Shown: positions 1 to 26,622, counted from the stretch's first letter. The stretch: DNA of 32,323 nucleotides from Thermodesulfobacteriota bacterium (GCA_034190285.1 JAXHTA010000001.1:1-32323); one strand, 5' to 3'. The notes: generated by a model not told the origin, from the letters alone. Numbers and translations: made by a program.

Positions 1-156
1 AGTTCGCCCTGGAGCACATTGACTCAAGCGACATCGCCGCGCTGACCCCAGAGGCCTCCAGAGTGAGCGGTATTCCACTGGTATCAGACCTGGATAGAGA
101 AGAGGCCGCGAGGATACTGGAGCGGGAGATTTGAGAGTTCGGAAATCCCGGGAGAA

Positions 157-1635
157 ATGGATGCCCTTGTAGGTGAATGGCGTGAGAAAATGATTGAAAA
201 CATCGTTGAAGCCAGCGACGAACTCATGGAAAAGTATTTGGAGGGGGAAGAGCTTTCCGTTGCCGAGATCGAAGAGACTCTCTGGGAGGGTATCAAATCG
301 GGAACGCTGGTTCCCGTGATTTGCGGCTCTTCTGTGCTGAATATAGGTGTCCCTCACTTAATGGATCTTATCATCCAGGGACTCCCATCTCCGATCGAGA
401 AAAGACCCAGAAAGGGGACCGAACCCGGTAGTGAAGAAGTCGCTGAAAGGCCGCCCACTCCCGACGCTCCTTTTTCCTCGCTTGTTTTTAAAACCGTTGC
501 TGACCCCTTTGCGGGCAGGCTTACCCTGATGAGGGTTTTTTCAGGCACGATTCAATCCGATTCAACCCTTCATAACGCCAACAAGAATATCAAAGAAAAA
601 ATGGGCCAGCTGCTTCTCATGGAAGGTAAACAGCAGCATCCGGTGGAAAAGGCCGGTCCTGGAGATATTGTCGCCATAGCGAAGCTAAAAGAGACATCTA
701 CAGGGGATACCCTGTGTTCGGCAAATGATCCCATCATTTACAGGCCGTCTGAACCCCTCCCACCCGTCATATCCTATGCGGTTGAGGCAAAGATTAAAGG
801 TAGTGAAGACAAGGTCTTTGCCTCTCTAGCCAAACTTCTTGAGGAAGATCCTACACTCAGGCTGGAGAGGGACCAGTCCACATCCGAGATCGTGCTCTCA
901 GGTACTGGGCAGATACACCTGGAGACCACTTGCGAAAAGCTGAACCGAAAATTCGGGGTCGAGGTCAACCTCAATCCCGTTAAGGTGCCCTACAGGGAAA
1001 CCATCAAGAAATCTGTTCAAAAGGTTATTTATCGCCACAAGAAACAAACAGGCGGTCGCGGACAATTTGCCGAGGTGCATTTTGATGTCTCTCCATTGGA
1101 AAGGGGAGTGGGCTTTGAATTCCAGGATGCCTTGACAGGCATGAATGTTCCCAGGAGTTTTGTGCCCGCCGTGGAGAAAGGCCTTAATGAAGCACTCCAA
1201 AGGGGTATACTCGCAGGCTACCCCGTGGTGGATCTGAAGGTCCGTTTCTATGACGGCAAGTCCCATGACGTGGACTCGTCGGAGATGGCGTTCAAGATAG
1301 CAGCCAGCATGTGTCTTAAAAAGGCCGTTCAGGAGGCTAGTCCTACTTTGCTCGAGCCCATTTTGAAAATGGAGGTTACTGTCCCGGAGGAGGTTTTAGG
1401 GGATGTTATGGGCGATCTGAACGGCCGGCGGGGAAGGGTAATAGGGATGGGCAGCCAGGGCAGGTATCAGGTGATCAAGGCCCAGGTTCCAATGGCCGAG
1501 GTCTTGCAGTACGCCCTTGATCTCAATTCGATTACGGGTGGCAGGGGGTCATTTAGTGTGGAGCGCTCCCATTACGAAGAAGTCCCTGGTCAACTGGCGG
1601 AAAAAGTGATCTCAGCTGCCCAAGAAAAAGAGTAG
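157..1635 (+). CDS. fusA: Elongation factor G family protein, C-terminal ~70% only (end of G' subdomain plus domains II-V); no GTPase domain in frame
   Basis: 492-aa ORF with the canonical EF-G blocks in order: EIPGEMDALVGEWREKMIE, ELMEKYLEGEEL, LPSP, GDTLC, YRETI, KQTGGRGQFAEV, SHDVDSSEMAFKIA, ITGGRGSF. Frame-1 stops at 43-45 and 64-66 prevent an in-frame upstream G domain. Confidence 0.8.
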   Translation: MDALVGEWREKMIENIVEASDELMEKYLEGEELSVAEIEETLWEGIKSGTLVPVICGSSVLNIGVPHLMDLIIQGLPSPIEKRPRKGTEPGSEEVAERPPTPDAPFSSLVFKTVADPFAGRLTLMRVFSGTIQSDSTLHNANKNIKEKMGQLLLMEGKQQHPVEKAGPGDIVAIAKLKETSTGDTLCSANDPIIYRPSEPLPPVISYAVEAKIKGSEDKVFASLAKLLEEDPTLRLERDQSTSEIVLSGTGQIHLETTCEKLNRKFGVEVNLNPVKVPYRETIKKSVQKVIYRHKKQTGGRGQFAEVHFDVSPLERGVGFEFQDALTGMNVPRSFVPAVEKGLNEALQRGILAGYPVVDLKVRFYDGKSHDVDSSEMAFKIAASMCLKKAVQEASPTLLEPILKMEVTVPEEVLGDVMGDLNGRRGRVIGMGSQGRYQVIKAQVPMAEVLQYALDLNSITGGRGSFSVERSHYEEVPGQLAEKVISAAQEKE

Positions 1636-2223: not shown

Positions 2224-2253
2224 TTGACGTTTGGCGGAGTTATGTCTTATGGT
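2224..2253 (+). promoter_or_regulatory. Possible sigma-70 promoter for the cold-shock gene
   Basis: TTGACG (2224-2229), 18-nt spacer, TATGGT (2248-2253). This would give a ~115-nt 5' UTR, which is typical for cspA-type genes. Motif match only. Confidence 0.3.
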
Positions 2254-2375
2254 GCAAACCTTGATCGCAGGGTGTCCCCTAAACTGGTTTTGCGCTTGAA
2301 AATCGTTTTTTTGCCAACGTGACGACCTAAGGCTTGGAACCACGACAGAAAGGTATTTGAAAGGAGTTCAGCGCT

Positions 2376-2576
2376 ATGGCAGAAGGAATCGTAAAATGGT
2401 TTAGTGATAAAAGAGGTTTTGGCTTCATTGAGCAGGAAGAGGGTCAGGACTTGTTTGTTCATTTTTCCGCCATCAGTACCTCTGGATTCAAGACCCTCTC
2501 TGAGGGTGACCGGGTGAGCTTTGAGGTGGAAGAAAGCGACCGGGGACCTAAGGCCAAGAACGTTGTGATACTCTGA
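2376..2576 (+). CDS. Cold-shock protein, CspA family (CSD/OB fold)
   Basis: 66 aa. [15 protein letters not shown] (RNP1) and DLFVHFSAI (RNP2) are textbook CspA motifs. GGAG lies upstream of the ATG. Confidence 0.95.
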
Positions 2577-2600
2577 TTTTCAGTTACATATAGTGCATAC

Positions 2601-2636
2601 GGGCATCTTGTTGAGACGGGATGCCTTTTTATTTTT
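2601..2636 (+). terminator. Rho-independent terminator after csp
   Basis: GGCATC (2602-2607) pairs with GATGCC (2620-2625), followed by TTTTTATTTTT. Confidence 0.6.
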
Positions 2637-3063
2637 CCGGGCGTCCAGGTAGAGGAGGTCCCCGTAATTCTGTAATTGACTCCAAACACCCGGCGCCTTC
2701 AAATCGGGCATTAGGCCTGATTGGGGCACTACTGTTTATGTAGCTGGCGTGCGGACTGATGGGTTTTTATACCGATGACAAGCCGGTCATCATCATTTTG
2801 TATGGCGCAGCATATTGAAAATGCCGTGGAGGTACTTATATTTACTGTGTAAAGGAAACTAGGGTTTTTCGTCGAGATCGCGTCGGTCGAAAATTTTAAA
2901 CGCAGGAATATATTGGAATATTTCGAGGATTAAGATTTGAGTCCAACGAAGATATAGGCGAAAAAGACGGTTTTCGTTCGGGCACTATTTAAGCATTGAC
3001 AAAATGAAAAAACTATAACATGTTTCCATGTTCACGGTCTGGGGCGTGAGCCAATAGCAGAAC

Positions 3064-4940: not shown

Positions 4941-5879
4941 ATGCCCGAAAAAACCGCATTTCTGTTTCCCGGCCAGGGTTCGCAATTTGTTGGCATGGGC
5001 CGGGATATGTTAGACCAGTTTCCAGCAGCAAAGGATATTTTTGGCGAGGTGGATGAAATTTGCGGAAGGCCTATCTCAAGGCTCTGTTTTGAGGGGCCCA
5101 TGGATGAATTGACGCTCACCGAGAATCTCCAGCCCGCCATTACTGCCGTGAATCTGGCCTGCCTGGCAGCGTTGAATAACTCAGGAGTCGGTCCAGCGGT
5201 TTCTGCCGGACACAGCTTAGGGGAATATGCCGCGCTGGCCTCCTCGGGCGTAGTCAGTAGCTACGATGCCCTCCGGCTTGCCCAGAAAAGGGGTGCGTTG
5301 ATGCACAGGGAGGCCCTGGCAAATCCCGGGGGCATGGCTGCTATAATAGGCATGGATATCGACGCAGTCCAGACGATTGTGGACCTGGCGGGAGACAAAG
5401 ACATACTGTCTGTGGCAAATCATAACACCGCTGAACAGATCGTGATCACGGGCGAAAAAAGGCCTCTTTCTCGGGCTATTCAACTGGTGAAGGAAAAAAA
5501 GGGCAGGGCTGTCCCTTTAAAGGTCAGCGGCGCATGGCACAGCGACCTCATGAAAGGCGCGGTAAACGAGTTCCGACGATTTATGGAAGATATTCCATTT
5601 TCAAGGCCTGAATTTCCAGTCCTGTTCAACGCCACAGCAAAGAGCGAAACAGACCCTGAGAGCATAAAAGACATAATGGCCATGCAACTCGTGAACCCGG
5701 TCAAATGGTATGACATAATAGTGAACATGTTGAATGACGGTATAGAGCTATTTGTGGAAGTGGGGCCTAAGAAGGTTTTGACCGGTCTACTGAAGAAGAT
5801 TCTCCCTCAAGGAAAGGATGTTGGAGTCTATAATGTGGAAGATACCCAGGGCCTGGGTTTATTCCTGAAAGAATCTTGA
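4941..5879 (+). CDS. fabD: Malonyl-CoA:ACP transacylase
   Basis: FLFPGQGSQFVGMG, the GHSLGEYAAL active-site Ser motif, and VSGAWHS. The 312-aa length is canonical. Confidence 0.95.
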   Translation: MPEKTAFLFPGQGSQFVGMGRDMLDQFPAAKDIFGEVDEICGRPISRLCFEGPMDELTLTENLQPAITAVNLACLAALNNSGVGPAVSAGHSLGEYAALASSGVVSSYDALRLAQKRGALMHREALANPGGMAAIIGMDIDAVQTIVDLAGDKDILSVANHNTAEQIVITGEKRPLSRAIQLVKEKKGRAVPLKVSGAWHSDLMKGAVNEFRRFMEDIPFSRPEFPVLFNATAKSETDPESIKDIMAMQLVNPVKWYDIIVNMLNDGIELFVEVGPKKVLTGLLKKILPQGKDVGVYNVEDTQGLGLFLKES

Positions 5880-6404
5880 CTACGTTTTCTTCCAACGTTT
5901 CTCCCGGCCGAGCAGGTACCTTTTCACCTCAATGCCGCTGCTGAAACCACCGAGACCTTCGGCGGCAACAACTCTGTGTCAGGGAAAGACTAACGGCAAT
6001 GGGTTACTACCCAAGGCCTGGCCTACGGCCCTTGCACCGCCGGCTTTCCCAACCATAAGCCCGACCTCTCCATAACGCCTTGTTTCTCCGAAAGGTATAG
6101 CTTTTATAGCGTTGAGTACCCTCCATTGAAACTGTGTGCAGGAAAAGGCCCGATCAAAGCCACCCCGGTGCCTCTTGTTCGTCAGGGCGGCCTCAACTAC
6201 TTGCACGATCTGCCTGTTGAAATGATAATCCTTGACCAGCCTGGTGTTCGGGAATAGCCCTCTGAAGAAGTCTATGCAATCAGCTTGTTTTTTCAGCGTG
6301 AGCCCTATTCTGAGCGCCCCTTCTCTTTTTGAGGCAAGATATACGTTCAGATCCCCCGCTGATATTTCCCAGCAGTAGACTTCCGGTACATTCGTCCCTG
6401 CCAT
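5880..6404 (-). CDS. ogt: Methylated-DNA--protein-cysteine methyltransferase (Ogt/MGMT) with in-frame UGA at the catalytic position; candidate selenoprotein (174 aa, U142), or else a nonsense pseudogene
   Basis: The tracked ORF 5979..6404 ends ...GARAVGQALGSNPLPLVFP, then TGA at 5979-5981. Reading on gives HRVVAAEGLGGFSSGIEVKRYLLGREKRWKKT, ending at TAG 5880-5882. Together this reconstitutes the P-[C]-HRV active site and the MGMT C-terminus. A SECIS-like hairpin follows the UGA. Confidence 0.7.
5946..5966 (-). promoter_or_regulatory. Candidate bacterial SECIS hairpin
   Basis: The mRNA reads GCCGCCGA-AGGUC-UCGGUGGU. This is an 8-bp stem (2 G-U pairs) with an apical loop containing GGUC. It starts 12 nt after the UGA, and GGU sits at +25..+27 from the U of UGA. 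Confidence 0.55.
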
Positions 6405-7291
6405 GTCTTTTCCCTTTCCAGTCTCTCGCGGATAAGTCTCAGGTTCGTGGTCTTTTCATTCGCCCACAGGGGGGCTACAAGTTCGGATTTCAGAGGGTCT
6501 CCTGTCAGTCTCTGGATTACCGTAGCAGGGCTGAGAAGCTCCAGAAAGCCCACGACCAGGTCCACATACTCCTCTCTTTGAAGACAGCGAAATTCCCCTT
6601 GCTTATACCACGCGGCCAGATGTGTCCCCTCAACAACATAGAGGAGATGGATCTTGACGCCATGGACCGGCAGATCCGAAAGAAGGCGTGCGGTCTGTAA
6701 CATCATCGCACGGTCTTCACCTGGTAGGCCCAATATTATGTGCGCACATACATTCAAGCCCGATTCACTGGCCATAACGACGCTACGCTCAAAACAGTCC
6801 ACATCGTGGCCCCGATTAATCCGGTCAAGGGTCAAGTCATGGGCAGACTGCAAGCCGTATTCGACCCAAACTAGGTGATCTTTTTTATAAGAACACAATA
6901 GCTTCAAGACATCCGGATCTATACAATCCGGCCTTGTTGAGACCGACAGACCTACCATGTCATCGTAGGCCAAAGCCTGATCATAGAGCGCTTTCAGTCT
7001 GGGGATAGGGGCATAAGTATTGGTAAAGGACTGGAAGTAGGCGATGAATTTCTTAGCGCCATACCGCTTCTGAATAAACCGGCGAGCCTTGGCAATTTGT
7101 TGGTCTATGGAAAGCCCATGATCTATGAATGAGCCCGTACCTGAACCGCGAGGATCACAAAAGACGCAACCTTTGTCGGAAATGCTTCCATCACGATTGG
7201 GGCAGTTCAAGCCGGCATCCAGGGGTATCTTTTGAACACGTTCCCCGAATATCTCCTTTAAATAGCCATTGAAATCGCGATATCTTTTCAA
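6347..7291 (-). CDS. Radical SAM protein, TIGR01212/YhcC family
   Basis: 314 aa. Contains KIPLDAGLNCPNRDGSISDKGCVFCD (CxxxxxxxxxxxCxxC-type cluster region) and overall colinearity with the YhcC family. Confidence 0.85.
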   Translation of the reverse strand: MKRYRDFNGYLKEIFGERVQKIPLDAGLNCPNRDGSISDKGCVFCDPRGSGTGSFIDHGLSIDQQIAKARRFIQKRYGAKKFIAYFQSFTNTYAPIPRLKALYDQALAYDDMVGLSVSTRPDCIDPDVLKLLCSYKKDHLVWVEYGLQSAHDLTLDRINRGHDVDCFERSVVMASESGLNVCAHIILGLPGEDRAMMLQTARLLSDLPVHGVKIHLLYVVEGTHLAAWYKQGEFRCLQREEYVDLVVGFLELLSPATVIQRLTGDPLKSELVAPLWANEKTTNLRLIRERLEREKTWQGRMYRKSTAGKYQRGI

Positions 7292-14457: not shown

Positions 14458-15957
14458 ATGAGTCTTTTTAGACAATACATGCCGAGGATGTTGAAAAAAA
14501 TCAACATACGCATTCGCATCTATGCGCTTTTGGCCTGTATCGTATTCGTCACTCTGGTGGGTGGCCTGGTAATGATATGGTACACCTATCAGATGGAAGG
14601 TCTCCTGTCCCAAATTGTTGATAGAAATATGGCCGCTTTCCTGGCGGCCGAGGAACTTGAAACGGCCCTGGCAAATCAGAAGGGTTTTGTATCTTATTAT
14701 TTTCTGGACGGTGACCCGGACTGGTTGAGGCGATTAGGGGAATATCGACAGATTATCAATCAGCGCCTCAAGAAGGCGAAATTCCTAGTTGAAACCGATA
14801 AACAAAAGAATACCGTTGAATGTATCGAGTCTGAATACGGCCGTTATATCAAGTTGAAAGACAGGGTTATCGACCATTACAAGGCAGGGGAAAGAGATGT
14901 CGGCGCTCTGCTTCATAAAGAAGTCCGCACCCACTTTCTGACAATTCAAGAACTGACCAAGCAATACAAGGACATGCATGCTGAAATTATAAAACATGAC
15001 AGGGAGCAAAGCCATAAAAGGGCAAAAAGGCTCAGGATTATTGCTGGAACTGCTATGCTCATGGTTACTCTGCTGGCTATGTTTTTGGTCTCTGTCCTGG
15101 TGCACCATATCTTAGAACCTGTCAGAAGGTTGGCCCGTGAGGCCACCCGAAAACGATTAACCGATGAAGAATCAGGTGATGAAATCAGGATCCTGAGCCG
15201 CCGTGTTCACGGCCTGATTGAAGATTTTGACCATACGCATTTTGAACTTGAAAAAAGCCGAGAACATCTATTACAGGCCAAAAAACTGGCGCTCGTGGGA
15301 AAGCTTGCAGCAGGGGTGGCTCACAGTATTCGCAATCCCCTTACATCGGTAAAAATGCGGCTCTTTTCATTAGAGCGAACCCTCAGTCTTTCCGACCATC
15401 AGAAAGAGGACTTTGAAGTCATATCAGAGGAGATCAAACATATTGACAATATCTTACAGAACTTTCTTGAGTTTTCACGTCCTCCCAGGCTCAGGACGCA
15501 AAAGATCAGTCCTTCGGACGTTGTGGACTTAGTAGTTCAATTGTTGCGCCACCGCCTGGAGTCTTATAATGTGGACATAAAGATATTCCGGCAAGGCCCT
15601 CTCCCGGATATCCAGGCCGACCCGGAGCAATTGAAGGAACTACTCATAAATCTCATTGTGAATTCTTGCGAATCAATGGCAGGCGGCGGTAAAATTCTTA
15701 TCCATGAGGAGGAGTCTTTCGCAGACCCTTTGGGAAAGGTGGTAGTCATTCGGTTGGCCGACAATGGCCCCGGTGTGCCAGAATCGCTTCAGGAAAAAAT
15801 CTTTCAACCCTTTTTTACAACCAAAGAGGAGGGATCGGGACTCGGGCTTAGCATTGCTGCACGTATCGTGGAGGAACACGGCGGGTGGCTGGACCTCGTA
15901 ACAGACGAGGGAGAAGGTTCGACTTTTGTCATCACATTTCCTGTCCCGGAGTGGTAA
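14458..15957 (+). CDS. Membrane sensor histidine kinase (2 TM, helical periplasmic domain, HAMP-like linker, HisKA, HATPase_c)
   Basis: H-box LAAGVAHSIRNPL, N-box LINLIVNSCESM, G1 DNGPGV, F-box FQPFFTTK, G2 GSGLGLSI. Two hydrophobic segments at ~aa 20-43 and ~195-217. Confidence 0.9.
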   Translation: MSLFRQYMPRMLKKINIRIRIYALLACIVFVTLVGGLVMIWYTYQMEGLLSQIVDRNMAAFLAAEELETALANQKGFVSYYFLDGDPDWLRRLGEYRQIINQRLKKAKFLVETDKQKNTVECIESEYGRYIKLKDRVIDHYKAGERDVGALLHKEVRTHFLTIQELTKQYKDMHAEIIKHDREQSHKRAKRLRIIAGTAMLMVTLLAMFLVSVLVHHILEPVRRLAREATRKRLTDEESGDEIRILSRRVHGLIEDFDHTHFELEKSREHLLQAKKLALVGKLAAGVAHSIRNPLTSVKMRLFSLERTLSLSDHQKEDFEVISEEIKHIDNILQNFLEFSRPPRLRTQKISPSDVVDLVVQLLRHRLESYNVDIKIFRQGPLPDIQADPEQLKELLINLIVNSCESMAGGGKILIHEEESFADPLGKVVVIRLADNGPGVPESLQEKIFQPFFTTKEEGSGLGLSIAARIVEEHGGWLDLVTDEGEGSTFVITFPVPEW

Positions 15958-15960
15958 GCC

Positions 15961-17445
15961 ATGAATGATATCCTAATCATTGATGATGACGACCAATTAC
16001 GAATGAGTTTTGAAAAACTTTTGACATCAGAGGGTTATACGGTAAGAAACGCCTCATCAGGGGAAGCAGGCGTCAAACTGATACATGAGGGAGTCCCGGA
16101 CCTGGTCATTCTGGACTTACGGCTGCCCGGAATAAACGGGCTTGAGACCTTTCAGGTGATTCATGAAATCGAGCCAAGACTCCCGGTTATAATCATGACA
16201 GCTTATGGCACAACAGACAACGCCATAGAGGCGACCAAAATGGGGGCCTTCGACTATATCCTTAAACCTTTTGAAATCCCCGACATGCTGAATGTGATTG
16301 AGCAGGCATTGGAAGCCGATCGTTTTATGCGTTCTCCGGTGGATATCAATACAGACCCTGAAAAGGCTTCCAGGGAGGCAATCATTGGCCGTTGCAAGCC
16401 GATGCAGGATGTCTATAAGGCGATCGGGAGGGTGTCTTCCACGAACGCCACGGTTCTCATTCGGGGGGAGTCCGGTACGGGCAAGGAACTTGTGGCCCGT
16501 GCCATCTATCAACACAGCCTCCGGGCGAATAGGCCGTTTCTTGTGATCAACTGCGTGGCAATCCCTGAAAATCTACTCGAAAGCGAGTTGTTCGGCTATG
16601 AGAAAGGGGCCTTCACAGGGGCCTCCCACAGGCGTGTGGGAAAGGTTGAACAGGCCCATAATGGTACAATTTTCTTAGACGAAATTGGTGACATGCCCCC
16701 GAGCATACAGGCCAAGATCCTGAGGTTGCTCCAGGAGAGGAGTATTGAGCGTCTGGGAGGCCAAAAGACCATTCAGGTGGATGTGCGAATTATTGCCGCC
16801 ACTAATAGAAATCTGGAGAAGGCCCTTTCAGAAGGTCGTTTTCGTGAAGACCTTTATTATCGTCTCAAGGTGGTGACCGTCTGGCTTCCCCCCCTTCGCG
16901 AAAGGCAGGGTGATGTCCCCCTCCTCACGGAGTATTTTCTATCTAAGTACGCCGCTCAAATGGACATTGATGTCCCTGGTATTGGAAGGGAGAGCATTAA
17001 GGTGCTTGAAGACTATCCATGGCCTGGCAATGTTAGAGAGCTTGCCAATACCATACAGAAGACGCTGATATTCAACCGTGGAGGGCCCGTGCGGCCCGAT
17101 GCCATTACCCAGTCAATCGGAGGCAGGGATCAAGACGGAGCTAATCGTAGCATAAGCGCTGATGACACCATCCGAAAATGGGTACGAGAAAAGTTGGTGT
17201 TTGAGGCTGGTGACAATATGTTCGATTCGTGCATGGACCTGCTCGCCAGTATTCTCGTCGGCGAAGCGCTCAGCCTGACAGGCGGCAACCGTTCCCGTGC
17301 GGCCAGACTCCTTGGTCTTTCAAGACCCACCCTTCACGCAAAAATCGAAAAATACGGACTCAAACTAAAAACATCGGTAAGGGAGGAAAAAAGCCGCGAT
17401 AATTTGACCCTGGCGTTGAATAAATTTGATACCAAAACGCCTTAG
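15961..17445 (+). CDS. Sigma-54-dependent response regulator (REC - AAA+ - Fis-type HTH; NtrC family)
   Basis: REC (DLVILDLRLPG, KP). AAA+ Walker A GESGTGKE, GAFTGA loop (EKGAFTGA), Walker B FLDEIG, RVIAATN. C-terminal HTH GNRSRAARLLGLSRPTL. Confidence 0.95.
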   Translation: MNDILIIDDDDQLRMSFEKLLTSEGYTVRNASSGEAGVKLIHEGVPDLVILDLRLPGINGLETFQVIHEIEPRLPVIIMTAYGTTDNAIEATKMGAFDYILKPFEIPDMLNVIEQALEADRFMRSPVDINTDPEKASREAIIGRCKPMQDVYKAIGRVSSTNATVLIRGESGTGKELVARAIYQHSLRANRPFLVINCVAIPENLLESELFGYEKGAFTGASHRRVGKVEQAHNGTIFLDEIGDMPPSIQAKILRLLQERSIERLGGQKTIQVDVRIIAATNRNLEKALSEGRFREDLYYRLKVVTVWLPPLRERQGDVPLLTEYFLSKYAAQMDIDVPGIGRESIKVLEDYPWPGNVRELANTIQKTLIFNRGGPVRPDAITQSIGGRDQDGANRSISADDTIRKWVREKLVFEAGDNMFDSCMDLLASILVGEALSLTGGNRSRAARLLGLSRPTLHAKIEKYGLKLKTSVREEKSRDNLTLALNKFDTKTP

Positions 17446-17530
17446 ATCAGGTCGGCAAACTACTTTGGGACATTTTCGGGGTGAAAGCGCCATGATTAGC
17501 TGGCATCTATATGCTGCTTCTGCTGACTAT

Positions 17531-17546
17531 TGGCACGAGAGTTGCT
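17531..17546 (+). promoter_or_regulatory. Sigma-54 (-24/-12) promoter for the stand-alone REC gene
   Basis: TGGCAC-GAGAG-TTGCT with GG-N10-GC spacing, ~100 nt upstream of start 17648. Confidence 0.7.
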
Positions 17547-17647
17547 TTTTGATTTTTAGGTGAGTCTTTCTATCCTGCCGGGGTTATTCCTGTCAAAACA
17601 AGACTATGGAGAATTAGACGCGTTTCAACGGTCTCAAAGGTGTTTCC

Positions 17648-18079
17648 TTGGGAAAGAAGTCCACAATCCTGATAGCGGATCGGAACCCTCGCGTGAGAGA
17701 GTTTCTAAAGCGTGAGATGATGGCTGAAGGCTACCAGGTCCGGCTGGCAAAGAGCGGCAGGGAAGTCCTTGAATTTGCTTATGACCACGACCCCCTTGAC
17801 TTGCTTATATTAGACCCGGATCTTCCCGATTCAAGCGAAACGCCAATACTGGAAAAGATTGAGGATCGCATCCCCTTGCTACCGGTGGTGGTTCACGCCT
17901 TTGCCCCGGATTATGGAAACCACAGCTTCTTATCGGCTACCGTGGTTTTTGTGGAAAAGAGAGGAAATAGTATCGAGGACCTCAAAAAAACGGTTCTTGA
18001 TCTTTTGAGAAAGACCGGCGTGGATCACTCGGATATCCAAAACAGGAGTAGCCGGCACCGCCACCAGCCCCGAGGTTAA
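17648..18079 (+). CDS. Stand-alone receiver (REC) domain protein, partly degenerate
   Basis: 143 aa with a TTG start after AAAGG. ILIADRN...LLILDPDLPD...VVVHAF...VEKR is a CheY-like fold signature, but DD appears as DR and the conserved T/S appears replaced. Confidence 0.65.
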   Translation: MGKKSTILIADRNPRVREFLKREMMAEGYQVRLAKSGREVLEFAYDHDPLDLLILDPDLPDSSETPILEKIEDRIPLLPVVVHAFAPDYGNHSFLSATVVFVEKRGNSIEDLKKTVLDLLRKTGVDHSDIQNRSSRHRHQPRG

Positions 18080-18143
18080 TCAGATCAGGAAAAGATAATT
18101 AAAGCTTACGCAAAAAAAGTCCTCCCTTCACCCTTCTCCCCTC

Positions 18144-18167
18144 GGAGGCTTCAGGCGTCTCTTTTTC
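18144..18167 (+). terminator. Weak candidate intrinsic terminator
   Basis: GAGGC (18145-18149) pairs with GTCTC (18157-18161), followed by TTTTT. The stem is only 5 bp with one G-U pair. Confidence 0.3.
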
Positions 18168-18250
18168 CTTTCCGGACTTCTTGAGAACTAAATTCTTTGA
18201 GCCTTATTGGTTTAAGGCAAAGCATCAATAAGCATAGCATACGTCCGTCG

Positions 18251-18267
18251 CTTTACAATATGTAAAG
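18251..18267. promoter_or_regulatory. Palindrome CTTTACA-ATA-TGTAAAG, candidate enhancer-binding-protein UAS
   Basis: Perfect 7-bp inverted repeat. Its centre is ~116 nt upstream of the GG of the sigma-54 promoter at 18374. Same half-sites as 14339-14355. Confidence 0.45.
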
Positions 18268-18373
18268 AATATCGACAAAAAATTCGTCGCCGGGCATAAA
18301 GCCATTCCGTTTATCTCCAGAAAAACGGCCTCATTCTATACGATTAGCCACTATTGCCCGCTAACCGTGTTTT

Positions 18374-18389
18374 TGGCATACCAATTGCC
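18374..18389 (+). promoter_or_regulatory. Sigma-54 (-24/-12) promoter for the permease/HK/REC gene string
   Basis: TGGCAT-ACCAA-TTGCC with GG-N10-GC spacing, ~70 nt upstream of ATG 18460. Confidence 0.7.
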
Positions 18390-18459
18390 ATAATGTTTTC
18401 CGCCAAAGAAGATGTCTCCCATCTCTTTACAATCTGTAGATACGAATTTGGAGGAAGAC

Positions 18460-20115
18460 ATGGTTCACCGTGCTACAACCGATATCCAACGTAAAGCGAG
18501 CTTCTGGGCAAGCAAACCAGGGTACAAGCCTGTCCTGTTCATAACCGCTGCTATTGTATTTGCCGGAGTGGTTATTGCACCTCCTCCCCGGAGCATGGTT
18601 GACCTGGCGGGAAAGGCCGGACCCCCCGGTTACAGGCTGGCAGGCGGGTGTGAGACTATTACAGACTGTATCAATAAAAAGCTCCGTCCCGCGGCCTTTA
18701 AGGCATCAAGAAAAGAGGATAAACAAAAGGTCGCGGAATCGGCGCCCCTATTCACGGACAGAGAAGCGGCCCAATTGGCAAAAACAATGCTGGCCATCTT
18801 TTTCTTGGCGGTCTTTCTCTGGGCAACGGAGGCCCTGCCCCTGGGGGCCACCGATTTGCTGGCAGCAGTCATGCTGTATCTGTTTTCCATCCTTCCCATC
18901 AATGAGATCTCCAAGGCTTATATGCAAGATGCCGTATTTTTTATCTTCGGCATTCTTGTGGTTGCAGTAGGTGTGGCAAAGACCGGACTTGACAAACGGA
19001 TAGGTCTGATACTCTTGAGTCGGATAAGGAGCGCCAGGGCGTTCGGCCTCGTGTTTCTTCCGCTTCTGGCGATGTCGGCGAGCTTTTTGTCCGAGCACGC
19101 CCTTGTGGCCCTTCTTATTCCTGTCTTGATGGGCGTGTACAAAGTGACGTGCAGGATGCACGGTGTGGAAAAAGACCCGGCGCTGGCCGTCTTTCTCCTA
19201 TTGGGTATATGCTTTGCCGCGAACCATGGCGGGCCGGGGTCTCCCGCGGCGGGCGGGAGAAACGCAATTATGGTAGGCTACTTCATGGAATATGGGGCCA
19301 CCATTTCCTTTTTAGATTGGATGAAATATGGCATGCCCTTTGTCCCTCTGATGGGCATTGTCATAGGCTCCTACATGTATATACGTTTGAAACCGAAATT
19401 CCGTGTCCAGAATGTCAACCCCGGTGAGGTCATCAAGACGGAAGTTGCCAGGATGCCCAAGTTCGGCGGAAAAGAGGCCAAGATGGCGGCCATACTGGTT
19501 TGTGTGGTGAGTGCATGGATAATTCTGGGGGAGCACTCTGGATTAGGGGGGCCCACCCTCTACGCGGTCATGGCCATGTTTCTCTGCCGTATTATCACCT
19601 GGGACGATATCCAGGAGGGTGTGGCTTTAGACGTGGTCGGCCTGTACGCCGCGGCCTGCGCCATGGGAGCGGGCCTTAAATTCACCGGCGGTGCCCTCTG
19701 GCTGGCCAATGCATTTGTTGCGCTGTTGCCCGATTTTATTGCGCACGGAGACAACCTGGCAATAGGAATCAGCGTTCTGACAGGGATTATGACCAATTTC
19801 ATGAGTGACGGCGCCACGGTTGCGGCCCTTGGGCCAATCGTCCTTCCCATGGCGGAACTTGCTAATGTCCACGTGTGGAAACTGGGTCTGGCCTGCGCCT
19901 TTTCCTCTTCCTTCGCCAACTTTTTGGTTGTCGGGACCCCTAACAATGCTATTGCCTTTGGCATGGGCAAGGATCCTGAGACAGGGGAAAGATTGTTGAA
20001 CGTTTTGGATTTCGTGAAGTACGGTCTGCCGGTCACAATCCTGGCGTGGCTTGTCCTGTGGTTTTGGTCCATTCTGGGATACTGGCAGTTCATGAGTTGG
20101 CCGGGACTTCCATAA
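18460..20115 (+). CDS. DASS/SLC13-like anion permease (ion-transporter superfamily), paralog 1
   Basis: Polytopic membrane protein with two hairpin-type motifs, GGPGSPAAGGRNAIM and VVGTPNNAIAF. The ORF opens at 18412, but the ATG at 18460 follows a GGAGGA RBS and lies downstream of the predicted sigma-54 start site. Confidence 0.75.
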   Translation: MVHRATTDIQRKASFWASKPGYKPVLFITAAIVFAGVVIAPPPRSMVDLAGKAGPPGYRLAGGCETITDCINKKLRPAAFKASRKEDKQKVAESAPLFTDREAAQLAKTMLAIFFLAVFLWATEALPLGATDLLAAVMLYLFSILPINEISKAYMQDAVFFIFGILVVAVGVAKTGLDKRIGLILLSRIRSARAFGLVFLPLLAMSASFLSEHALVALLIPVLMGVYKVTCRMHGVEKDPALAVFLLLGICFAANHGGPGSPAAGGRNAIMVGYFMEYGATISFLDWMKYGMPFVPLMGIVIGSYMYIRLKPKFRVQNVNPGEVIKTEVARMPKFGGKEAKMAAILVCVVSAWIILGEHSGLGGPTLYAVMAMFLCRIITWDDIQEGVALDVVGLYAAACAMGAGLKFTGGALWLANAFVALLPDFIAHGDNLAIGISVLTGIMTNFMSDGATVAALGPIVLPMAELANVHVWKLGLACAFSSSFANFLVVGTPNNAIAFGMGKDPETGERLLNVLDFVKYGLPVTILAWLVLWFWSILGYWQFMSWPGLP

Positions 20116-20178
20116 TTAATGCTGTGCGGCGTAAAGAGCTGTATACGGGCCTTTGTTCAAATGGGGTTGTAAGCCAAT

Positions 20179-21840
20179 ATGAAGAGTTCACTTTATCTGA
20201 ATCTCCAGAGGAAGATCATTTCCCTCACCTTACTGGTTTCCTTTGCTCCGCTGATTATCCTCGGCGTGACCATGTACTGCCTGTTCTCCCGGACCGCGAG
20301 GGATAAGATCGAAGAACAGATAAGATATCGAGCAAGGTCGCAGTCAGAGGCGGTGGATCTGTTTTTAAAAGAGCGCACCGCCATTCTCGGCGCGATGGCT
20401 GAAAACCGAAATATCCTTGATATTACAGATGAAAAGAACCTTTCCCACGTATTAAATGTCATGAATTCATGGGCTGGGGCCTTTGTGGATCTGGGCGTAA
20501 TTGACAATGCGGGCCGGCACCTTGCCTATGTGGGGCCCTATGATCTTAAGGGCATGAATTACTATCAGGAACCCTGGTTTGCCGAGGTCATGAGCAAAGG
20601 GATCTATGTCAGCGATGTCTACATGGGTTTCCGGCAGTCGCCACATTTTATTATTGCCGTAAGACGCCAGGAGGACGAGAGTAGCTGGATACTAAGGGCA
20701 ACTATTGATCCGGATGTCTTTAGTGGAATCGTGAGATCAGCACAGATAGGAAAGACAGGGGATGCCTACATCATAAATAAGGCCGGCGTTTTTCAGACAG
20801 GTCCCCGGTTTGATGGGCAGATTCTGTCCAAATCCGAACTAAACCCGAGTTTATTCGGCGGAAGGACGACGGTTTCTGAGCATAAAAATGGTCGTGGCAA
20901 AAAACTTCTCTATGCGGGCAGTTGGCTCAAAAACGATAAATGGCTTCTCATCATCAGCCAGGATCCGGCCGAGCAATTGAGCGGGCTGCTTGCCGCGCGA
21001 AATGTGGAGATCAGCATCATTATTTCCGGTATCCTGGCAATTATCCTGACAACGGTTTTTACAACTCGTTTGACAGTCAACCGGCTAAAACAGACGGATT
21101 TAAGGATGGATGAACTCAATGCTCAACTTATCCAGTCTGATAAATTGGCGGCGTTAGGAAAAATGGCGGCCGGTGTCGCTCATGAAATCAACAACCCGCT
21201 GGCTGTAATTATGCAGAAGACCGGCTGGATGGAGGATCTGCTTTCTGAAGAGGATTTTCAAAGGTCCGAAAATCTTAAAGAATACAAGAAGTCCCTTACA
21301 AGCATAGACGAACACGTGGAACGGGCGCGAAAGGTCGTCCACGGGATGCTTGGTTATGCCCGCAAGATGGAGCCGCATCTGGAGGATGTGGACATAAACA
21401 CGACCTTGAACCAGACGATCAGTCTTCTGGAAAATTACGCCAAAATTAATAATATCGAGATTCAAACAGACCTCCGTCCCGATCTGCCGATTATTGCAGG
21501 TGATGAGGCCCAGCTCCAACAAGTTTTCTTGAATATCATATCCAACGCGATTGACGCAATCGGCAAGGACGGTTTGATTCAGGTAAAAAACAACTGCGTG
21601 GGTTCAACAGTCAGCGTGAGTGTTACGGATGATGGGCCGGGTATTCCCGAAGACAAACAAAAAAAGGTGTTTGACCCCTTTTTTACAACAAAGCAAACGG
21701 GTAAGGGAACGGGACTCGGGTTATGGATCACCTATGGGATCATAGAAAGGATGGGGGGGTCCATTTCATTGAAAAGCGAACCCGGTAAAGGCAGCACTTT
21801 TTCCGTTAATATCCCCATTGTGCTGCCGGAGAAGAAATGA
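20179..21840 (+). CDS. Sensor histidine kinase with extracytoplasmic Cache/PDC-like domain, paralog 1
   Basis: TM1 (LLVSFAPLIILGVTMYCLF), a ~250-aa periplasmic domain (DLGVIDNAGRHLAYVGPY...PWF...YVSDVYMGFRQSPHFIIAV...GKTGDAYIIN), then TM2. H-box AAGVAHEINNPL, N-box LNIISNAID, G1 DDGPGI, FDPFFTTK, GTGLGL. Confidence 0.9.
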   Translation: MKSSLYLNLQRKIISLTLLVSFAPLIILGVTMYCLFSRTARDKIEEQIRYRARSQSEAVDLFLKERTAILGAMAENRNILDITDEKNLSHVLNVMNSWAGAFVDLGVIDNAGRHLAYVGPYDLKGMNYYQEPWFAEVMSKGIYVSDVYMGFRQSPHFIIAVRRQEDESSWILRATIDPDVFSGIVRSAQIGKTGDAYIINKAGVFQTGPRFDGQILSKSELNPSLFGGRTTVSEHKNGRGKKLLYAGSWLKNDKWLLIISQDPAEQLSGLLAARNVEISIIISGILAIILTTVFTTRLTVNRLKQTDLRMDELNAQLIQSDKLAALGKMAAGVAHEINNPLAVIMQKTGWMEDLLSEEDFQRSENLKEYKKSLTSIDEHVERARKVVHGMLGYARKMEPHLEDVDINTTLNQTISLLENYAKINNIEIQTDLRPDLPIIAGDEAQLQQVFLNIISNAIDAIGKDGLIQVKNNCVGSTVSVSVTDDGPGIPEDKQKKVFDPFFTTKQTGKGTGLGLWITYGIIERMGGSISLKSEPGKGSTFSVNIPIVLPEKK

Positions 21841-21905
21841 AGATGATCCTATAAACTTCAAAGCCGAAGTATAGCCAATTCTGGAAAGAATTTTAGGAGG
21901 CAAAA

Positions 21906-22370
21906 ATGGACCATTTCATAGTTTTGGTCGTGGATGATGAAAAGGACTTCACGGACACCCTGGTCAATCGCTTGGACAAGAGGAATATAGATGCGGCCGG
22001 CGTTTTAAGCGGGGAGGATGCCCTTGAAGCGATGAAGGTGAGACTATTTGATGTGGTGATCCTTGACGTGAAAATGCCCGGCGGAATGGATGGGATTGAG
22101 ACGCTCAGGGAAATCAAGAAGATCCAGCCCCTTGCCGAAGTTATTTTGCTGACCGGTCACGGATCGGTGGAAACGAGCATCGAGGGGATGAAATTAGGGG
22201 CCTTCGATTACCTCCTGAAGCCCGTAAAACTGGAAGATCTCCTCGTAAAGATGGCTCAAGCCTTTGAAAAAAAAGACGCCCATGATCAGAAGATTCGAAG
22301 CGCCAGGATCAAAGAATTAATCCGTTTTCCGGGAAGGGTGTTTGATCAGGAAAAAGAAGAAGAGACATAA
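21906..22370 (+). CDS. Single-domain response regulator (REC plus ~35-aa tail)
   Basis: VVDDE, VVILDVKMPGGMDGIETL, LLTGHG and FDYLLKP. No recognisable output domain. Confidence 0.9.
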   Translation: MDHFIVLVVDDEKDFTDTLVNRLDKRNIDAAGVLSGEDALEAMKVRLFDVVILDVKMPGGMDGIETLREIKKIQPLAEVILLTGHGSVETSIEGMKLGAFDYLLKPVKLEDLLVKMAQAFEKKDAHDQKIRSARIKELIRFPGRVFDQEKEEET

Positions 22371-22381
22371 GATTTAAGGCC

Positions 22382-24070
22382 ATGAAGGAGAATCATTATT
22401 CAGGTGTAAGAAGGAGCATTTTGGGCGGCATGATTTTGGTGCCCTCCCTTCCGTTTGTCTTGGTTCTGGGCATCGGGTACTATTATTTTGCCACATCTCT
22501 CCAGACCAGCACCATCTCCAGCATGAACAGGATTGTCAAAGACCACCGTCAGATGATTGATTCGTTTTTTAGCGAGCGAAAGGCCGACCTTGGCTTTATT
22601 CTCCACACATATAAATATGAGGATCTCACGGAGTCTCAAAAACTCTATGATGTCTTTGCCGGGCTGCAACGTGTATCCAGCGCGTTCTTGGATCTTGGCG
22701 TTTTTGATGAAAAGGGCCTCCATGTCAGTTACCAGGGACCTTACAAATTGGCCGGCAGGGATTATGGGAGTGAGGGCTGGTTCAAGGAGGTTCTAAAGGA
22801 GGGCTGTTACATCAGCGATGTCTTCCTTGGCTATCGCCGCATACCCCACTTCATCATCGCCTTGGCCGGACAGGATGGTAGAAAGAAATGGGTTATTCGG
22901 GCCACCATTGATACCTACATGTTTAACGGCCTGGTCAAAAAAGTGCACATTGGCAAGACCGGTGAGTCCTACCTAATTAACAGAAACGCTGTATTCCAGA
23001 CTGAGAGACGTTCAGGCGGGAATCTTATGGATAAAGCCCCTGAAAACATCAAATACCCTTTATCCCGTAGCGGGGTAGAGAACTTCGTTTTAAAAGATCA
23101 AAGGGGAGATGCGCATTGCTATGCCACGACCTGGCTCAAAAACAAGGATTGGCTGCTGGTCGTGAGACAGGAGAAGGCGGACGCGTTCAGGCTCCTTTAT
23201 TCAGCTGGCTATCTGATCCTTCTCATTTCCATAGTGGGCGGCGGAGGCATTGTTGTTCTCGCCTTCTACATGACCGGCCGGATTGTCAGGCGAATGCAGC
23301 AGATGGATATGGAAAAAGAAAAACTGGGTGATCAGCTCATCAGGGCCGGACGATTAGCGGAATTAGGCGAGATGGCGGCAGGGTTCGCACATGAGATCAA
23401 TAATCCGCTCCAGATAATGAAGAGCGAGCAGGCGCTTATGGATGCCGTTTTTTCAGAACTGAAGGAAAAAGGCCAATTAAAGGAATCAGAGGATTTGGCC
23501 GAATTGGAGGACTCCATAGCCCAAATAAGGCTTCAAATCGAGCGTTGTTCAAAAATTACACATTCCATACTCGCCTTTGGCAGAAAAGGTGAAGCCGAAC
23601 CAACGGCCGTGGACCTACGGACTTTCATTCCTGAAGTCACAGGCATGGTCGCCAAGAAGGCAATTGTCCATGGGATTCAGATGAACCAGGCTTTATTGGA
23701 AGCCCTCCCTCCGGTTCGTGTTGACCCGGCGCTTTTTCAACAGGTCTTGCTCAATCTCTTAAACAACGCCATTGACGCGATCCTGGAAAGACATGGTGCC
23801 AGCGGCGGAGAGATGTCTATTGAAGCCCGTCCGGCAGAAAATGGAGACGTGGAGATTTCTGTCAAAGATAACGGCATCGGAATCAGCCCGGATAATCAGG
23901 AAAAGATATTCAGGCCCTTTTTTACCACGAAACCGGCAGGCAGGGGAACAGGATTAGGCCTTTCCGTATGTTACAGCATAATAGACAACATGGGTGGTGT
24001 CATGAAGTTGAGCAGTGAAAAGGGCGTTGGTACGACTGTTACGATACTCCTGCCAAAAGAGACTCGCTGA
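22382..24070 (+). CDS. Sensor histidine kinase with extracytoplasmic Cache/PDC-like domain, paralog 2
   Basis: Same architecture as 20179..21840 (DLGVFDEKGLHVSYQGPY...GWF...YISDVFLGYRRIPHFIIAL...GKTGESYLIN). H-box AAGFAHEINNPL, LNLLNNAID, DNGIGI, FRPFFTTK, GTGLGL. Confidence 0.9.
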   Translation: MKENHYSGVRRSILGGMILVPSLPFVLVLGIGYYYFATSLQTSTISSMNRIVKDHRQMIDSFFSERKADLGFILHTYKYEDLTESQKLYDVFAGLQRVSSAFLDLGVFDEKGLHVSYQGPYKLAGRDYGSEGWFKEVLKEGCYISDVFLGYRRIPHFIIALAGQDGRKKWVIRATIDTYMFNGLVKKVHIGKTGESYLINRNAVFQTERRSGGNLMDKAPENIKYPLSRSGVENFVLKDQRGDAHCYATTWLKNKDWLLVVRQEKADAFRLLYSAGYLILLISIVGGGGIVVLAFYMTGRIVRRMQQMDMEKEKLGDQLIRAGRLAELGEMAAGFAHEINNPLQIMKSEQALMDAVFSELKEKGQLKESEDLAELEDSIAQIRLQIERCSKITHSILAFGRKGEAEPTAVDLRTFIPEVTGMVAKKAIVHGIQMNQALLEALPPVRVDPALFQQVLLNLLNNAIDAILERHGASGGEMSIEARPAENGDVEISVKDNGIGISPDNQEKIFRPFFTTKPAGRGTGLGLSVCYSIIDNMGGVMKLSSEKGVGTTVTILLPKETR

Positions 24071-24293
24071 CGAGGCAAATATTTCGAAAGCTCAACGGCA
24101 ACTTCCAAAGAAAACACGGTTAGCGGAGCTGATATTTGAGCAAGAATCGGCCTTTTGAAGGTAAGACACCACGACCCGAGGGAATCTCTTTTGCCAAAGC
24201 CGAATTACAATGGGTCAGCAACAGGGCGATGAATGTTTCGAAGACCGATCAGCACTACGTTTTTGGGATGTTAGAACAACGGGGGGATATAGG

Positions 24294-24761
24294 ATGGAAC
24301 ATATGAAAATTATGTTGGTTGATGATGAGGAGAGGTTCCTTTCCACCACCAAAAAACTTCTTGCGAGGAAAGGTCATGATATTTTCACTGCAACCGGCGG
24401 CGCTGACGCCCTCGAACAACTGCGAATCCACAGTATTCACGTGGTGATCTTAGACGTCAAGATGCCAGGCATGGACGGCATTGAAACCTTGAAGGCCATT
24501 AAAAGGATTTATCCTATGGTTGAGGTGATTATGCTGACCGGTCACGGCACAGTGGATTCCGCCGTTGAAGGTTTGAAGTCCGGAGCCACGGACTATTTGA
24601 CCAAGCCCACCGATGTGAATGACCTCATTGAAAAAGCGGAAGAGGCATTTGAAAAAAGACAGAGACTGGAAGAAAAAATCCGTGTGGCCCAGGTGCGAAG
24701 CTTCATGAAGTCTCCAGGTGAGATTATTAGAGAAACCGAAAAGAGTTCACGCGAAAGATGA
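24294..24761 (+). CDS. Single-domain response regulator (REC plus ~35-aa tail), paralog of 21906..22370
   Basis: LVDDEE, VVILDVKMPGMDGIETL, MLTGHG and TDYLTKP. The ORF opens at 24210, but ATG 24294 (or 24303) preceded by a G-rich SD fits REC N-termini. Confidence 0.9.
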   Translation: MEHMKIMLVDDEERFLSTTKKLLARKGHDIFTATGGADALEQLRIHSIHVVILDVKMPGMDGIETLKAIKRIYPMVEVIMLTGHGTVDSAVEGLKSGATDYLTKPTDVNDLIEKAEEAFEKRQRLEEKIRVAQVRSFMKSPGEIIRETEKSSRER

Positions 24762-24771
24762 GGTGAAGAAA

Positions 24772-26622
24772 ATGTCTCAGGTCAAGAAAAAGGCCACGGG
24801 ATACGATAAGTATGTTGACTGGCGACTGTTCTCTATACCTGTTGTCCTGTTTTTTGCAATCCTGATCCTGCCGACGCCTTACGGGATGAAGGACGTGGGT
24901 ACGGAGGTCAAGGTCGGGCCGAAAACCGTTATTAATCTTGTCACCACGGAATTGTTTAATAACAAGAGCATAGAAGTGGCCCAGTGGGAACTTCTCACTG
25001 CCCGGATAATGGAAAGAAATATGAGGATGGGAGCGCTTTCCAGAGGTCGTTTTCTAAAACGGGACATCAAGTGGTGCGAAAAATACGAGATTCAGGCAGA
25101 TTCCGAAAACCTGAAAAAGGCTCAGGACTATATTAACGAGACAGTCAGTGATGAAAGGTTTTCCACAATTATGAAAAAGGCCGTGGAACTCAGGAGAGAC
25201 GGCCTCAAGTATGAGGAGCTTTCCGGCAGGGACAGGAAGGCCGCCGATAAAGGGGCCTGGCACATTAAGGTCGCCATAGGCATGATGGTTTTTGTGGTTT
25301 TCTGCTTCATGACGGAATGCATCCCCTTGCCGGGTGTCGCCTTTTGCATCGGTCTTATCCTTGTTTGCACGGGCGTTGTAACAAGACAGCAGGTGGCCAT
25401 GCTCTACTGGAGCGACGCCTGCTGGTTCATTATGGGGAGCCTCATGTTTGCAGCGGCCTTTGTCAAGACCGGTGTTGACAAGAGAATATGCCTCATGATG
25501 TTCAGAAAACTGGCCGTTCCCAATGTGAAATGGGTCACGCTTATTTTCTTTATAATCATTTCACCCCTTGCGGCCTTTATCTCAGACCATGCCTTAGCCG
25601 CCATGTTCCTCCCCATAGGCATGCTGCTTTACCAGAACAGCCTGACCGATGAGGTCCCGGAGGACATGGAGCTTGCCAAGATGATGATGATATCCATTGC
25701 AATGGCCTGTAACATAGGAGGCCCGGGGGCCCCGTCAGGCGGCGCAAGAAACGTAATAATGATGACCTATCTTAATGACATGTTCGGCTTTGATATCGGT
25801 TACTTCCAATGGGTCACCTATTGCTTTCCCTTTATACTGGTCATGATCCCTATAACATGGTTCACGGTGAATCTGCGCTTCAGGCCCAAGATCACTTCCC
25901 TCGCCCCTGCCATGAACCAGCTGCAAAAAGAAATAGGGAAGATGGGAGGATGGAACAAGAGGCAAATATGGGCTCTCATCATATTTGTCATTATGGTATA
26001 CGGCTGGTTCACTGAAAAGGTCTTCTTCAACATGGGTATATATCCCGTTCGTCTCGGCATAGGGGTGATAGCAGTTGCAGGCGCGGTGGCCTATCTCCTT
26101 ACCGGCGTCGTAAATTGGAGAGACTATCAGGAGAGAGTGGACTGGGGGGTAGTCTGGCTTTATGCCGGGGCCATCATCTTTGGCCGAACCCTGGACAGCA
26201 CCGGTGCTGCCTACTGGCTGGCAAGATCTGTGATTGATCTTCTCGGGCCTTTGGGAATGAATTCCGGGCTTCCCCTCATGGCGACTTCCAATGGTCTCAC
26301 GGCCATACTGACCAATCTCATGGCAGATGGCCCCGCCGCCGCCGCCGTGGGTCCAATCTCCCTTAACATGGCCGGTCTTGTCCATCCGGGTACCACATTC
26401 CTGCCATTTATGGCCATGGCCACGGCGATTGCCTCTTCCTTTGCCTACTGTTTGGTTATTGGAACGCCCCCGAATGCCATTGTTTATGCAAGCGGTTACC
26501 TTGAGCCAAGAGACTACCTTAGAGTAGGCATTGCCATGTGGCTCTTCGCAAATGTGCTGATCATCCTTCTCACAGCATTCTACTGGGGTTTCAGGGGATT
26601 TGTGGGACTAACTGGATTCTAA
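24772..26622 (+). CDS. DASS/SLC13-like anion permease, paralog 2, with a ~125-aa hydrophilic insert after TM1
   Basis: Motifs GGPGAPSGGARNVIM and VIGTPPNAIVY. ATG 24772 follows GAGGTG and lies 10 nt after the REC stop, so the upstream ORF extension to 24718 overlaps the REC gene. Confidence 0.75.
   Translation: MSQVKKKATGYDKYVDWRLFSIPVVLFFAILILPTPYGMKDVGTEVKVGPKTVINLVTTELFNNKSIEVAQWELLTARIMERNMRMGALSRGRFLKRDIKWCEKYEIQADSENLKKAQDYINETVSDERFSTIMKKAVELRRDGLKYEELSGRDRKAADKGAWHIKVAIGMMVFVVFCFMTECIPLPGVAFCIGLILVCTGVVTRQQVAMLYWSDACWFIMGSLMFAAAFVKTGVDKRICLMMFRKLAVPNVKWVTLIFFIIISPLAAFISDHALAAMFLPIGMLLYQNSLTDEVPEDMELAKMMMISIAMACNIGGPGAPSGGARNVIMMTYLNDMFGFDIGYFQWVTYCFPFILVMIPITWFTVNLRFRPKITSLAPAMNQLQKEIGKMGGWNKRQIWALIIFVIMVYGWFTEKVFFNMGIYPVRLGIGVIAVAGAVAYLLTGVVNWRDYQERVDWGVVWLYAGAIIFGRTLDSTGAAYWLARSVIDLLGPLGMNSGLPLMATSNGLTAILTNLMADGPAAAAVGPISLNMAGLVHPGTTFLPFMAMATAIASSFAYCLVIGTPPNAIVYASGYLEPRDYLRVGIAMWLFANVLIILLTAFYWGFRGFVGLTGF

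Follow-up and report, generated by a model that had tools for sequence, protein, structure and literature searches.

Methylated-DNA-protein-cysteine methyltransferases (MGMT) that contain selenocysteine (Sec) have been described before. Wu et al. (2005) reported such a protein in Carboxydothermus hydrogenoformans (CHY0809, ABB14497.1), in which a stem-loop followed the UGA codon, and the case was called unique and a very recent Cys-to-Sec event by the authors (PMC1287953). Zhang and Gladyshev (2007/2008) listed the family among the known selenoproteins, and the accessible text of these surveys gives two members in the Olavius algarvensis symbiont metagenome and one in GOS (PMC1976440, PMC2398784). 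Sec-MGMT was also placed under PF01035/COG0350 in reviews of 2022 and 2026 (PMC9312934, PMC13188914). In addition, the human AGT variant C145U could protect ada/ogt-deleted E. coli from MNNG, while the Ser variant could not (Haruna et al. 2014, PMC4150793).

An MGMT/Ogt gene with UGA at the codon of the alkyl-acceptor Cys was analysed here in a stretch of 32,323 nucleotides from a Thermodesulfobacteriota bacterium (GCA_034190285.1, JAXHTA010000001.1:1-32323), which is called the window below. The gene is taken to encode an alkyltransferase of 174 residues, in which codon 142, UGA, would be decoded as Sec, and a probability of about 0.9 is given to this reading. Since Sec-MGMT has been catalogued since 2005, the locus would be a further member of a known selenoprotein family. 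The novelty implied by the original prediction thus had to be given up, in view of the report of 2005 (PMC1287953), the Olavius and GOS metagenomes and the reviews of 2022 and 2026. The core of that prediction, a Sec-type MGMT with a SECIS element and not a pseudogene, was strongly supported by Sec/Cys pairing, by TGA in 37 loci, by purifying selection and by a conserved hairpin.

The ORF on the minus strand started with ATG at 6404 and reached TGA at 5981-5979, and its translation gave 141 aa with the C-terminal end ...GSNPLPLVFP, in agreement with the coordinates and sequence predicted originally. Reading in frame past the TGA gave HRVVAAEGLGGFSSGIEVKRYLLGREKRWKKT, up to TAG at 5882-5880. 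PF01035 matched residues 91-169 of the readthrough product over profile positions 1-80 of 81 (E 1e-26; Cys was put at the TGA position for the Pfam match), so the MGMT domain crosses the TGA and a complete PF01035 domain requires UGA readthrough. The readthrough product was also matched by TIGR00589 ogt of NCBIfam (E 1e-25), and OGT, AGT and Ada structures in PDB aligned across the Sec position with E values from 1e-20 to 1e-14, the best being M. tuberculosis OGT 4wxc/4bhb (E ~1e-20, lowest 1.5e-20). The downstream frame had been proposed to be an intact MGMT C-terminus, and both PF01035 and the OGT structures do align through the TGA.

The acceptor motif reads P-[UGA]-H-R-V, with flanking residues the same as in the family consensus, and from this sequence context we infer that the acceptor residue at the UGA is Sec. 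In the alignment with 4wxc the motifs ipfgetrryge/ipygetrsyge, aravg, np, pchrv and llgrek/llelek were kept. The Tyr of GETRxYG, the Arg finger of ARAVG and the Asn of NP(L/V)P are all located 5' of the UGA, while the His-Arg of PCHR and the Glu of LLxxE are located 3' of it, the Glu being kept in all Sec-type tails. The hAGT counterparts of the Tyr, the Arg finger, the Asn and the C-terminal Glu are Y114, R128, N137 and E172. The N-terminus MAG..YCWEI was kept among orthologs. By its domain and motifs the product belongs to the O6-alkylguanine-DNA alkyltransferases, and a stoichiometric alkyl transfer to the protein is predicted by analogy with hAGT C145U. The features of the locus are collected in Table 1.

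Table 1. Positions of the candidate Sec-type MGMT gene, its elements and the adjoining genes, numbered from the first nucleotide of the window
Feature	Position	Strand	Remarks
Predicted Sec-type MGMT/Ogt, full CDS	5880..6404	-	174 codons, putative Sec at codon 142, plus TAG stop
Putative UGA selenocysteine codon, alkyl-acceptor position	5979..5981	-	P-U-H-R-V
Post-UGA coding region, HRVV...YLLGREKRWKKT	5883..5978	-	His and Arg of PCHR motif, conserved Glu of YLL..E
True stop TAG	5880..5882	-	abuts convergent fabD stop at 5877-5879
SECIS-type hairpin	5946..5966	-	5' arm 5966-5959 GCCGCCGA; loop 5958-5954 AGGUC; 3' arm 5953-5946 UCGGUGGU
mnmL/ytqA-type tRNA-modification radical SAM gene, upstream of MGMT	6347..7291	-	TIGR01212, E 7e-110
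fabD, convergent	4941-5879		TGA at 5877-5879

The radical SAM gene overlaps the start of the MGMT gene by 58 nt (6347-6404), which makes translational coupling of the two within one operon probable. This overlap and the contact of the MGMT TAG with the fabD TGA had both been pointed out originally, and both match the coordinates. The radical SAM/MGMT pair with an overlap of 43-58 nt was found in most Sec- and Cys-type orthologs (L081-L090 and L171-L172 among the loci), with the exceptions of L084 (4 nt) and L085 (none). Why a tRNA U34-modification enzyme should be functionally linked to an alkyltransferase is not obvious. The genes of the window have ordinary housekeeping and signalling functions and are, in order, a partial EF-G gene, MogA-like, CspA-like, tRNA-Met, DUF507, fabD, MGMT and mnmL/ytqA, then mtnA, ilvE, a DUF362 ferredoxin protein, a rhodanese, two-component systems, DASS transporters and ExbBD/TonB. 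Desulfobacteraceae MAG loci shared the order radical SAM - MGMT - (fabD) - DUF507 - ORF3152 - tRNA-Met, much of which was also present in Cys-type relatives, e.g. strain NaphS2, and by this gene order the contig belongs to Desulfobacterota.

Some further observations concern the rest of the window. The EF-G-like ORF (1-1635, plus strand) has domains II-V only, without a GTPase domain, and in-frame stops occur in its first ~65 nt; probably the contig is ragged at this end, and no real truncated paralog is involved. Positions 2376-2576 (plus strand) encode a small cold-shock protein, in a gap that is otherwise free of annotation. Signalling and transport genes are densely packed at 14458-27843 (plus strand), with three histidine kinases (two with dCache sensor and one with 4HB_MCP module), five response-regulator proteins (one being a sigma-54 activator) and two paralogous DASS-family transporters of the Na/sulfate-citrate type.

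The codon at the catalytic position was compared among relatives by a species-representative scan, with one genome per species and 80 loci in total. TGA was present in all of the 12 closest species representatives (L001-L012, 50-60% identity), which are Desulfobacteraceae, Desulfobacterales, Deltaproteobacteria and Ca. Desulfacyla MAGs, and after the TGA these continue in frame with HRVVAAGGLGGFGSGLxVKRYLL. The remaining loci (L013-L080) had TGC or TGT in 68/68. TGC or TGT in close orthologs had been named originally as evidence that would count against Sec, and TGA was what all of L001-L012 carried. Cys/Sec pairs at this column, proposed earlier as a check, were found as well: with the metagenome scan added, there were 37 TGA loci (30 distinct 60-nt segments) versus 134 Cys loci (TGC/TGT). 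The Sec and Cys forms were interleaved in a rough NJ tree, which carries no support values. A more distant MGMT (L131:115-700, metagenome contig Ga0316628_100529858) had TGA at 577 as its catalytic codon and a different hairpin, GCUCAGC/AGGCGC/GCUGGGC, at a spacing of 20 nt. It seems to belong to another Sec-MGMT lineage, distinct from the Desulfobacterales clade.

A search of ~5.8 billion proteins gave full-length Cys-type relatives of ~50% identity, and nine proteins of 45-77% identity whose C-termini were all ...NPLPL[VI]F[PA], a single residue short of the catalytic Cys. The deposited lengths of the nine were 141 aa (one 143), or 128 where the start was called downstream and 162 where it was called upstream. 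The annotation of the window product and of eight database homologs, all deposited short and ending just before the active site, would therefore need to be corrected, the actual product being most probably a 174-aa selenoprotein.

An 8-bp stem with an AGGUC loop, 12 nt after the UGA, had been predicted, and folding confirmed it at 5966-5946, with the hairpin starting 12 nt and the apical loop 20 nt past the UGA. The hairpin is encoded by the codons A-A-E-G-L-G-G. Since GCN GCN ... GGN GGN codons for Ala-Ala...Gly-Gly are self-complementary by nature, controls for the fold were required. In fact, the single-sequence fold of 66 nt was no more stable than dinucleotide shuffles (z = -0.8), so the case for a hairpin beyond chance rests on the comparative and synonymous-recoding tests. 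Of 5000 synonymous recodings of the window peptide, drawn from the codon usage of the window, only 0.68% were as stable as the real sequence, and the stability of the hairpin thus exceeds what the encoded peptide requires. The dS of the eight hairpin codons was 0.81, versus 1.41 for the rest of the tail.

The published bSECIS criteria (loop of 3-9 nt, stem of 4-16 bp, G among the first two loop positions, 16-37 nt from UGA to loop, MFE <= -7.5 kcal/mol; PMC13188914) were applied in our own implementation, which demands a perfect stem. The hairpin fits them with a 5-nt loop AGGUC, G at position 2, an 8-bp stem, 20 nt of spacing and -12.1 kcal/mol. Among the Sec-type sequences 28/32 passed, always with a spacing of 18-21, while 16/128 Cys-type sequences passed with scattered spacings. 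Three of the four Sec-type failures had a single stem mismatch, which the perfect-stem rule rejects, and in the fourth (L002) the hairpin was deleted. In this Deltaproteobacteria MAG (L002:849-900, JAFDHL010000261.1) the TGA was kept and, compared with L001, an exact 18-nt in-frame deletion removed the hairpin (CGCCGAAGGTATCGGCGG); it could be either a decaying copy or an assembly artefact induced by the hairpin.

The mean fold of the 36 nt after the catalytic codon was -15.0 kcal/mol in Sec-type (30) versus -9.4 in Cys-type (126) sequences (Mann-Whitney p = 3.6e-9), and within the peptide class HR[VI]xA[AV]xGxGGF only it was -15.5 (n=24) versus -9.6 (n=18; p = 9e-6), though the sequences share phylogeny and are not independent in these statistics. 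The stem positions were paired in 91.7% of cases in an ungapped alignment of 30 sequences, versus 29-55% when the partners were slid, and changes on both sides occurred at three stem pairs. The observed covariation was reached by 3-7/500 shuffles on four of five measures, and by 55/500 for further pair types. Hairpin conservation with compensatory changes had been proposed originally as a check; the hairpin is conserved, and the support from covariation is modest, which is due to the location of the stem in conserved codons.

Equally strong hairpins existed in some GC-rich Cys-type genes (L035, L062 and L085). The strongest hairpin of all (-20.6 kcal/mol, in the SECIS position) belonged to a Cys-type gene with TGC, that of the delta proteobacterium NaphS2 (L085:3303-3350, ADZZ01000262.1), which would be consistent with Cys having recently replaced Sec, or with a pre-adapted ancestor. 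Between Ala-Ala and Gly, Sec-type sequences had Gly or Glu (AA[G/E]G), and peptide-matched Cys-type sequences had Asn, Arg, Lys, Ser, Thr or His, with Gly in two. The restriction of this protein residue to Gly or Glu appears to be imposed by the GG of the SECIS loop. The locus illustrates how a SECIS may be built out of pre-adapted, self-complementary Ala-Ala...Gly-Gly codons. An Rfam search of 5700-6500 at a permissive E-value gave no match to a SECIS family, only a chance match to uxuA (E 8.5).

The hairpin had been described as fdhF-like, and this was compared with the K-12 fdhF sequence, TGACACGGCCCATCGGTTGCAGGTCTGCACC, i.e. TGA-CAC...GGTTGCA-GGTC-TGCACC. The UGA-CAC context and the GGUC in the apical loop are common to both, and the stem-loop starts ~11-12 nt past the UGA in E. 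coli fdhF as it does here, so these parts of the description, with the near-equal spacing, were right. However, GGUC is at +22..25 in E. coli fdhF and at +25..28 here, one codon (3 nt) further downstream, an equivalent of the bulged U17 is absent, and the stem sequence is unrelated, which does not agree with an element of fdhF type. The loops of orthologs were mostly GGN or GGGGN, not GGUC. Given the shifted loop, the absent bulged U and the different ortholog loops, the resemblance is to the generic bSECIS model and not to fdhF specifically.

For the decoding of the gene, SelB-GTP-Sec-tRNA(Sec) would bind the hairpin that starts 12 nt 3' of the UGA, and Sec would be delivered to the ribosome at the UGA in competition with release factor 2. 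The ribosome would then continue to the TAG at 5882-5880, giving a product with the active site P-U-H-R-V. The selenolate is expected to be alkylated from O6-alkylguanine in a single SN2 step, stoichiometric and irreversible, like the Cys in Ogt, Ada and MGMT. This chemistry is plausible since engineered human AGT C145U protects E. coli. The sequences themselves show the UGA/Cys pairing, the retention of TGA and of a translated frame past it, and a conserved hairpin of bSECIS type, while dependence on SelB, incorporation of selenium and alkyl transfer to it are proposed.

Pfam and NCBIfam annotation of 27 ORFs revealed no selA, selB or selD in the 32-kb window, ARAGORN found only tRNA-Met and no selC/tRNA-Sec in the same window, and the flanks of the 33 Sec-type loci contained no tRNA-Sec. 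A scan of the window for ORF-TGA-ORF arrangements gave no second selenoprotein gene, only the MGMT gene and spurious overlaps; the candidate at 2247-2729 (minus strand) was rejected, being antisense to the cold-shock protein gene 2376-2576. The window being without sel genes, the Sec-decoding capacity of the host is deduced from its taxonomic neighbourhood: Desulfobacterales are among the bacteria richest in selenoproteins, with some of the largest known selenoproteomes (BSepDB, PMC13326102).

The lack of visible Sec machinery in the 32-kb window would also suit readthrough of the UGA without Sec, by near-cognate Cys or Trp insertion, or predominant termination with a functional 141-aa fragment, e.g. 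a DNA-damage-binding alkyltransferase-like protein, and the full-length product made only occasionally. Because termination is generally a competitor of Sec insertion, a certain amount of truncated product is to be expected in any case, which would favour the fragment as a product. Nevertheless, this alternative is improbable, although it survives better than the others. The conserved stem-loop with G in its apical loop and a fixed 20-21 nt spacing is a signature of SelB-dependent decoding, and the clade lies within the selenoprotein-rich Desulfobacterota. The truncated product would end within the PF01035 domain and would have neither the nucleophile nor the His, the Arg and the conserved C-terminal Glu. 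Moreover, purifying selection acts across the tail, so the full-length product is what is selected.

For this selection, the mean pairwise dN/dS of Sec-type orthologs was 0.127 after the TGA (24 codons) versus 0.133 before it (51 codons), and the neutral evolution of 5880-5978 that would have spoken against the original prediction was not observed. The tails of Sec-type sequences stopped 27-40 codons past the TGA, which is the normal MGMT C-terminus, except for L095, whose frame was still open at the 50-codon limit of the tail scan. No frameshift or additional stop was found in the Sec-type tails. These data bear on a nonsense pseudogene, in which a single TGY-to-TGA mutation would have inactivated a Cys-type ogt and left the downstream frame open by accident. 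Gene callers do treat the locus in this way, with P0001 and eight homologs deposited as truncated proteins of ~141 aa, and decay is possible, as the related locus L002 lost its hairpin through the 18-nt deletion. But TGA is found at the acceptor codon in 12 species-level genomes and in 30 distinct sequences whose protein identity spans 45-77%, the downstream dN/dS of 0.13 equals that upstream with the tails free of frameshifts and extra stops, and the hairpin is conserved, which makes a pseudogene very improbable.

Least probable of all is a sequencing or assembly error, or an alternative genetic code with UGA as sense: the contig is metagenomic with a ragged-looking 5' end, where the EF-G frame is broken over the first ~65 nt, but the 525-nt gene was 100% identical in two independent run assemblies (SRR24907504 and SRR24907505), with the identity extending over 3.8 kb and 2.9 kb, the TGA codon is shared with orthologs, and TGA is the commonest ordinary stop within the contig (13/28 genes). 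By the comparative, assembly-identity and stop-usage data, pseudogene, error and code reassignment can in practice be dismissed.

The preferred reading, a 174-residue alkyltransferase with Sec at its acceptor position, leaves the known picture of Sec decoding and MGMT chemistry unchanged. MGMT is one of the few selenoproteins which are not redox proteins, and it is consumed stoichiometrically. A much bolder proposal is that Sec has long been kept in Desulfobacterales MGMT, is possibly ancestral there, and, boldest, that the Se-adduct is dealkylated and the protein regenerable. Dealkylation of an Se-alkyl-selenocysteine adduct is conceivable in view of the lower strength and higher reactivity of the C-Se bond, and what bears on the proposal is the clade-wide retention of Sec and the Sec/Cys interleaving in the rough NJ tree; it is regarded as a long shot. 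If it were true, a long-maintained Sec would mean that selection strongly favours the expense of selenium on a single-use protein, and a regenerable Sec-MGMT would be the first protein of the MGMT family to act catalytically.

Compared with CHY0809, the locus has the same family (PF01035/COG0350), Sec predicted in place of the alkyl-acceptor Cys, a stem-loop directly past the UGA, and the same way of detection by Sec/Cys homology. CHY0809 is from a Firmicute and not from Desulfobacterota, and the two were compared by description, not by sequence. While CHY0809 was deemed unique and recent, Sec in Desulfobacterales appears to be common to a whole clade, and its presence in 12/12 nearest species representatives and in ~30 distinct environmental sequences contrasts with the view of 2005. 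The Olavius and GOS Sec-MGMTs are, like the present one, environmental TGA-containing MGMT genes of a catalogued selenoprotein family, and the Olavius data set is described in the accessible text as dominated by marine sulfate-reducing deltaproteobacteria, the broad group of the relatives found here. As far as that text goes, they are given as table counts, with the Olavius sequences not tied to any symbiont, and a clade-level analysis, a description of the SECIS or synteny is not part of it. Engineered human AGT C145U shares Sec at P-U-H-R-V and a selenolate as single-turnover acceptor, and it repaired MNNG damage in vivo; it differs in being artificial and not a natural selenoprotein, with Sec inserted at UAG by an EF-Tu-dependent, SECIS-free system. 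Judged from the sequences compared, Sec is the prevailing state of MGMT in a sizeable Desulfobacterales clade, and this may go beyond the literature covered, as may the Sec/Cys interleaving, the second TGA lineage (L131) and the truncation of the gene in public gene calls.
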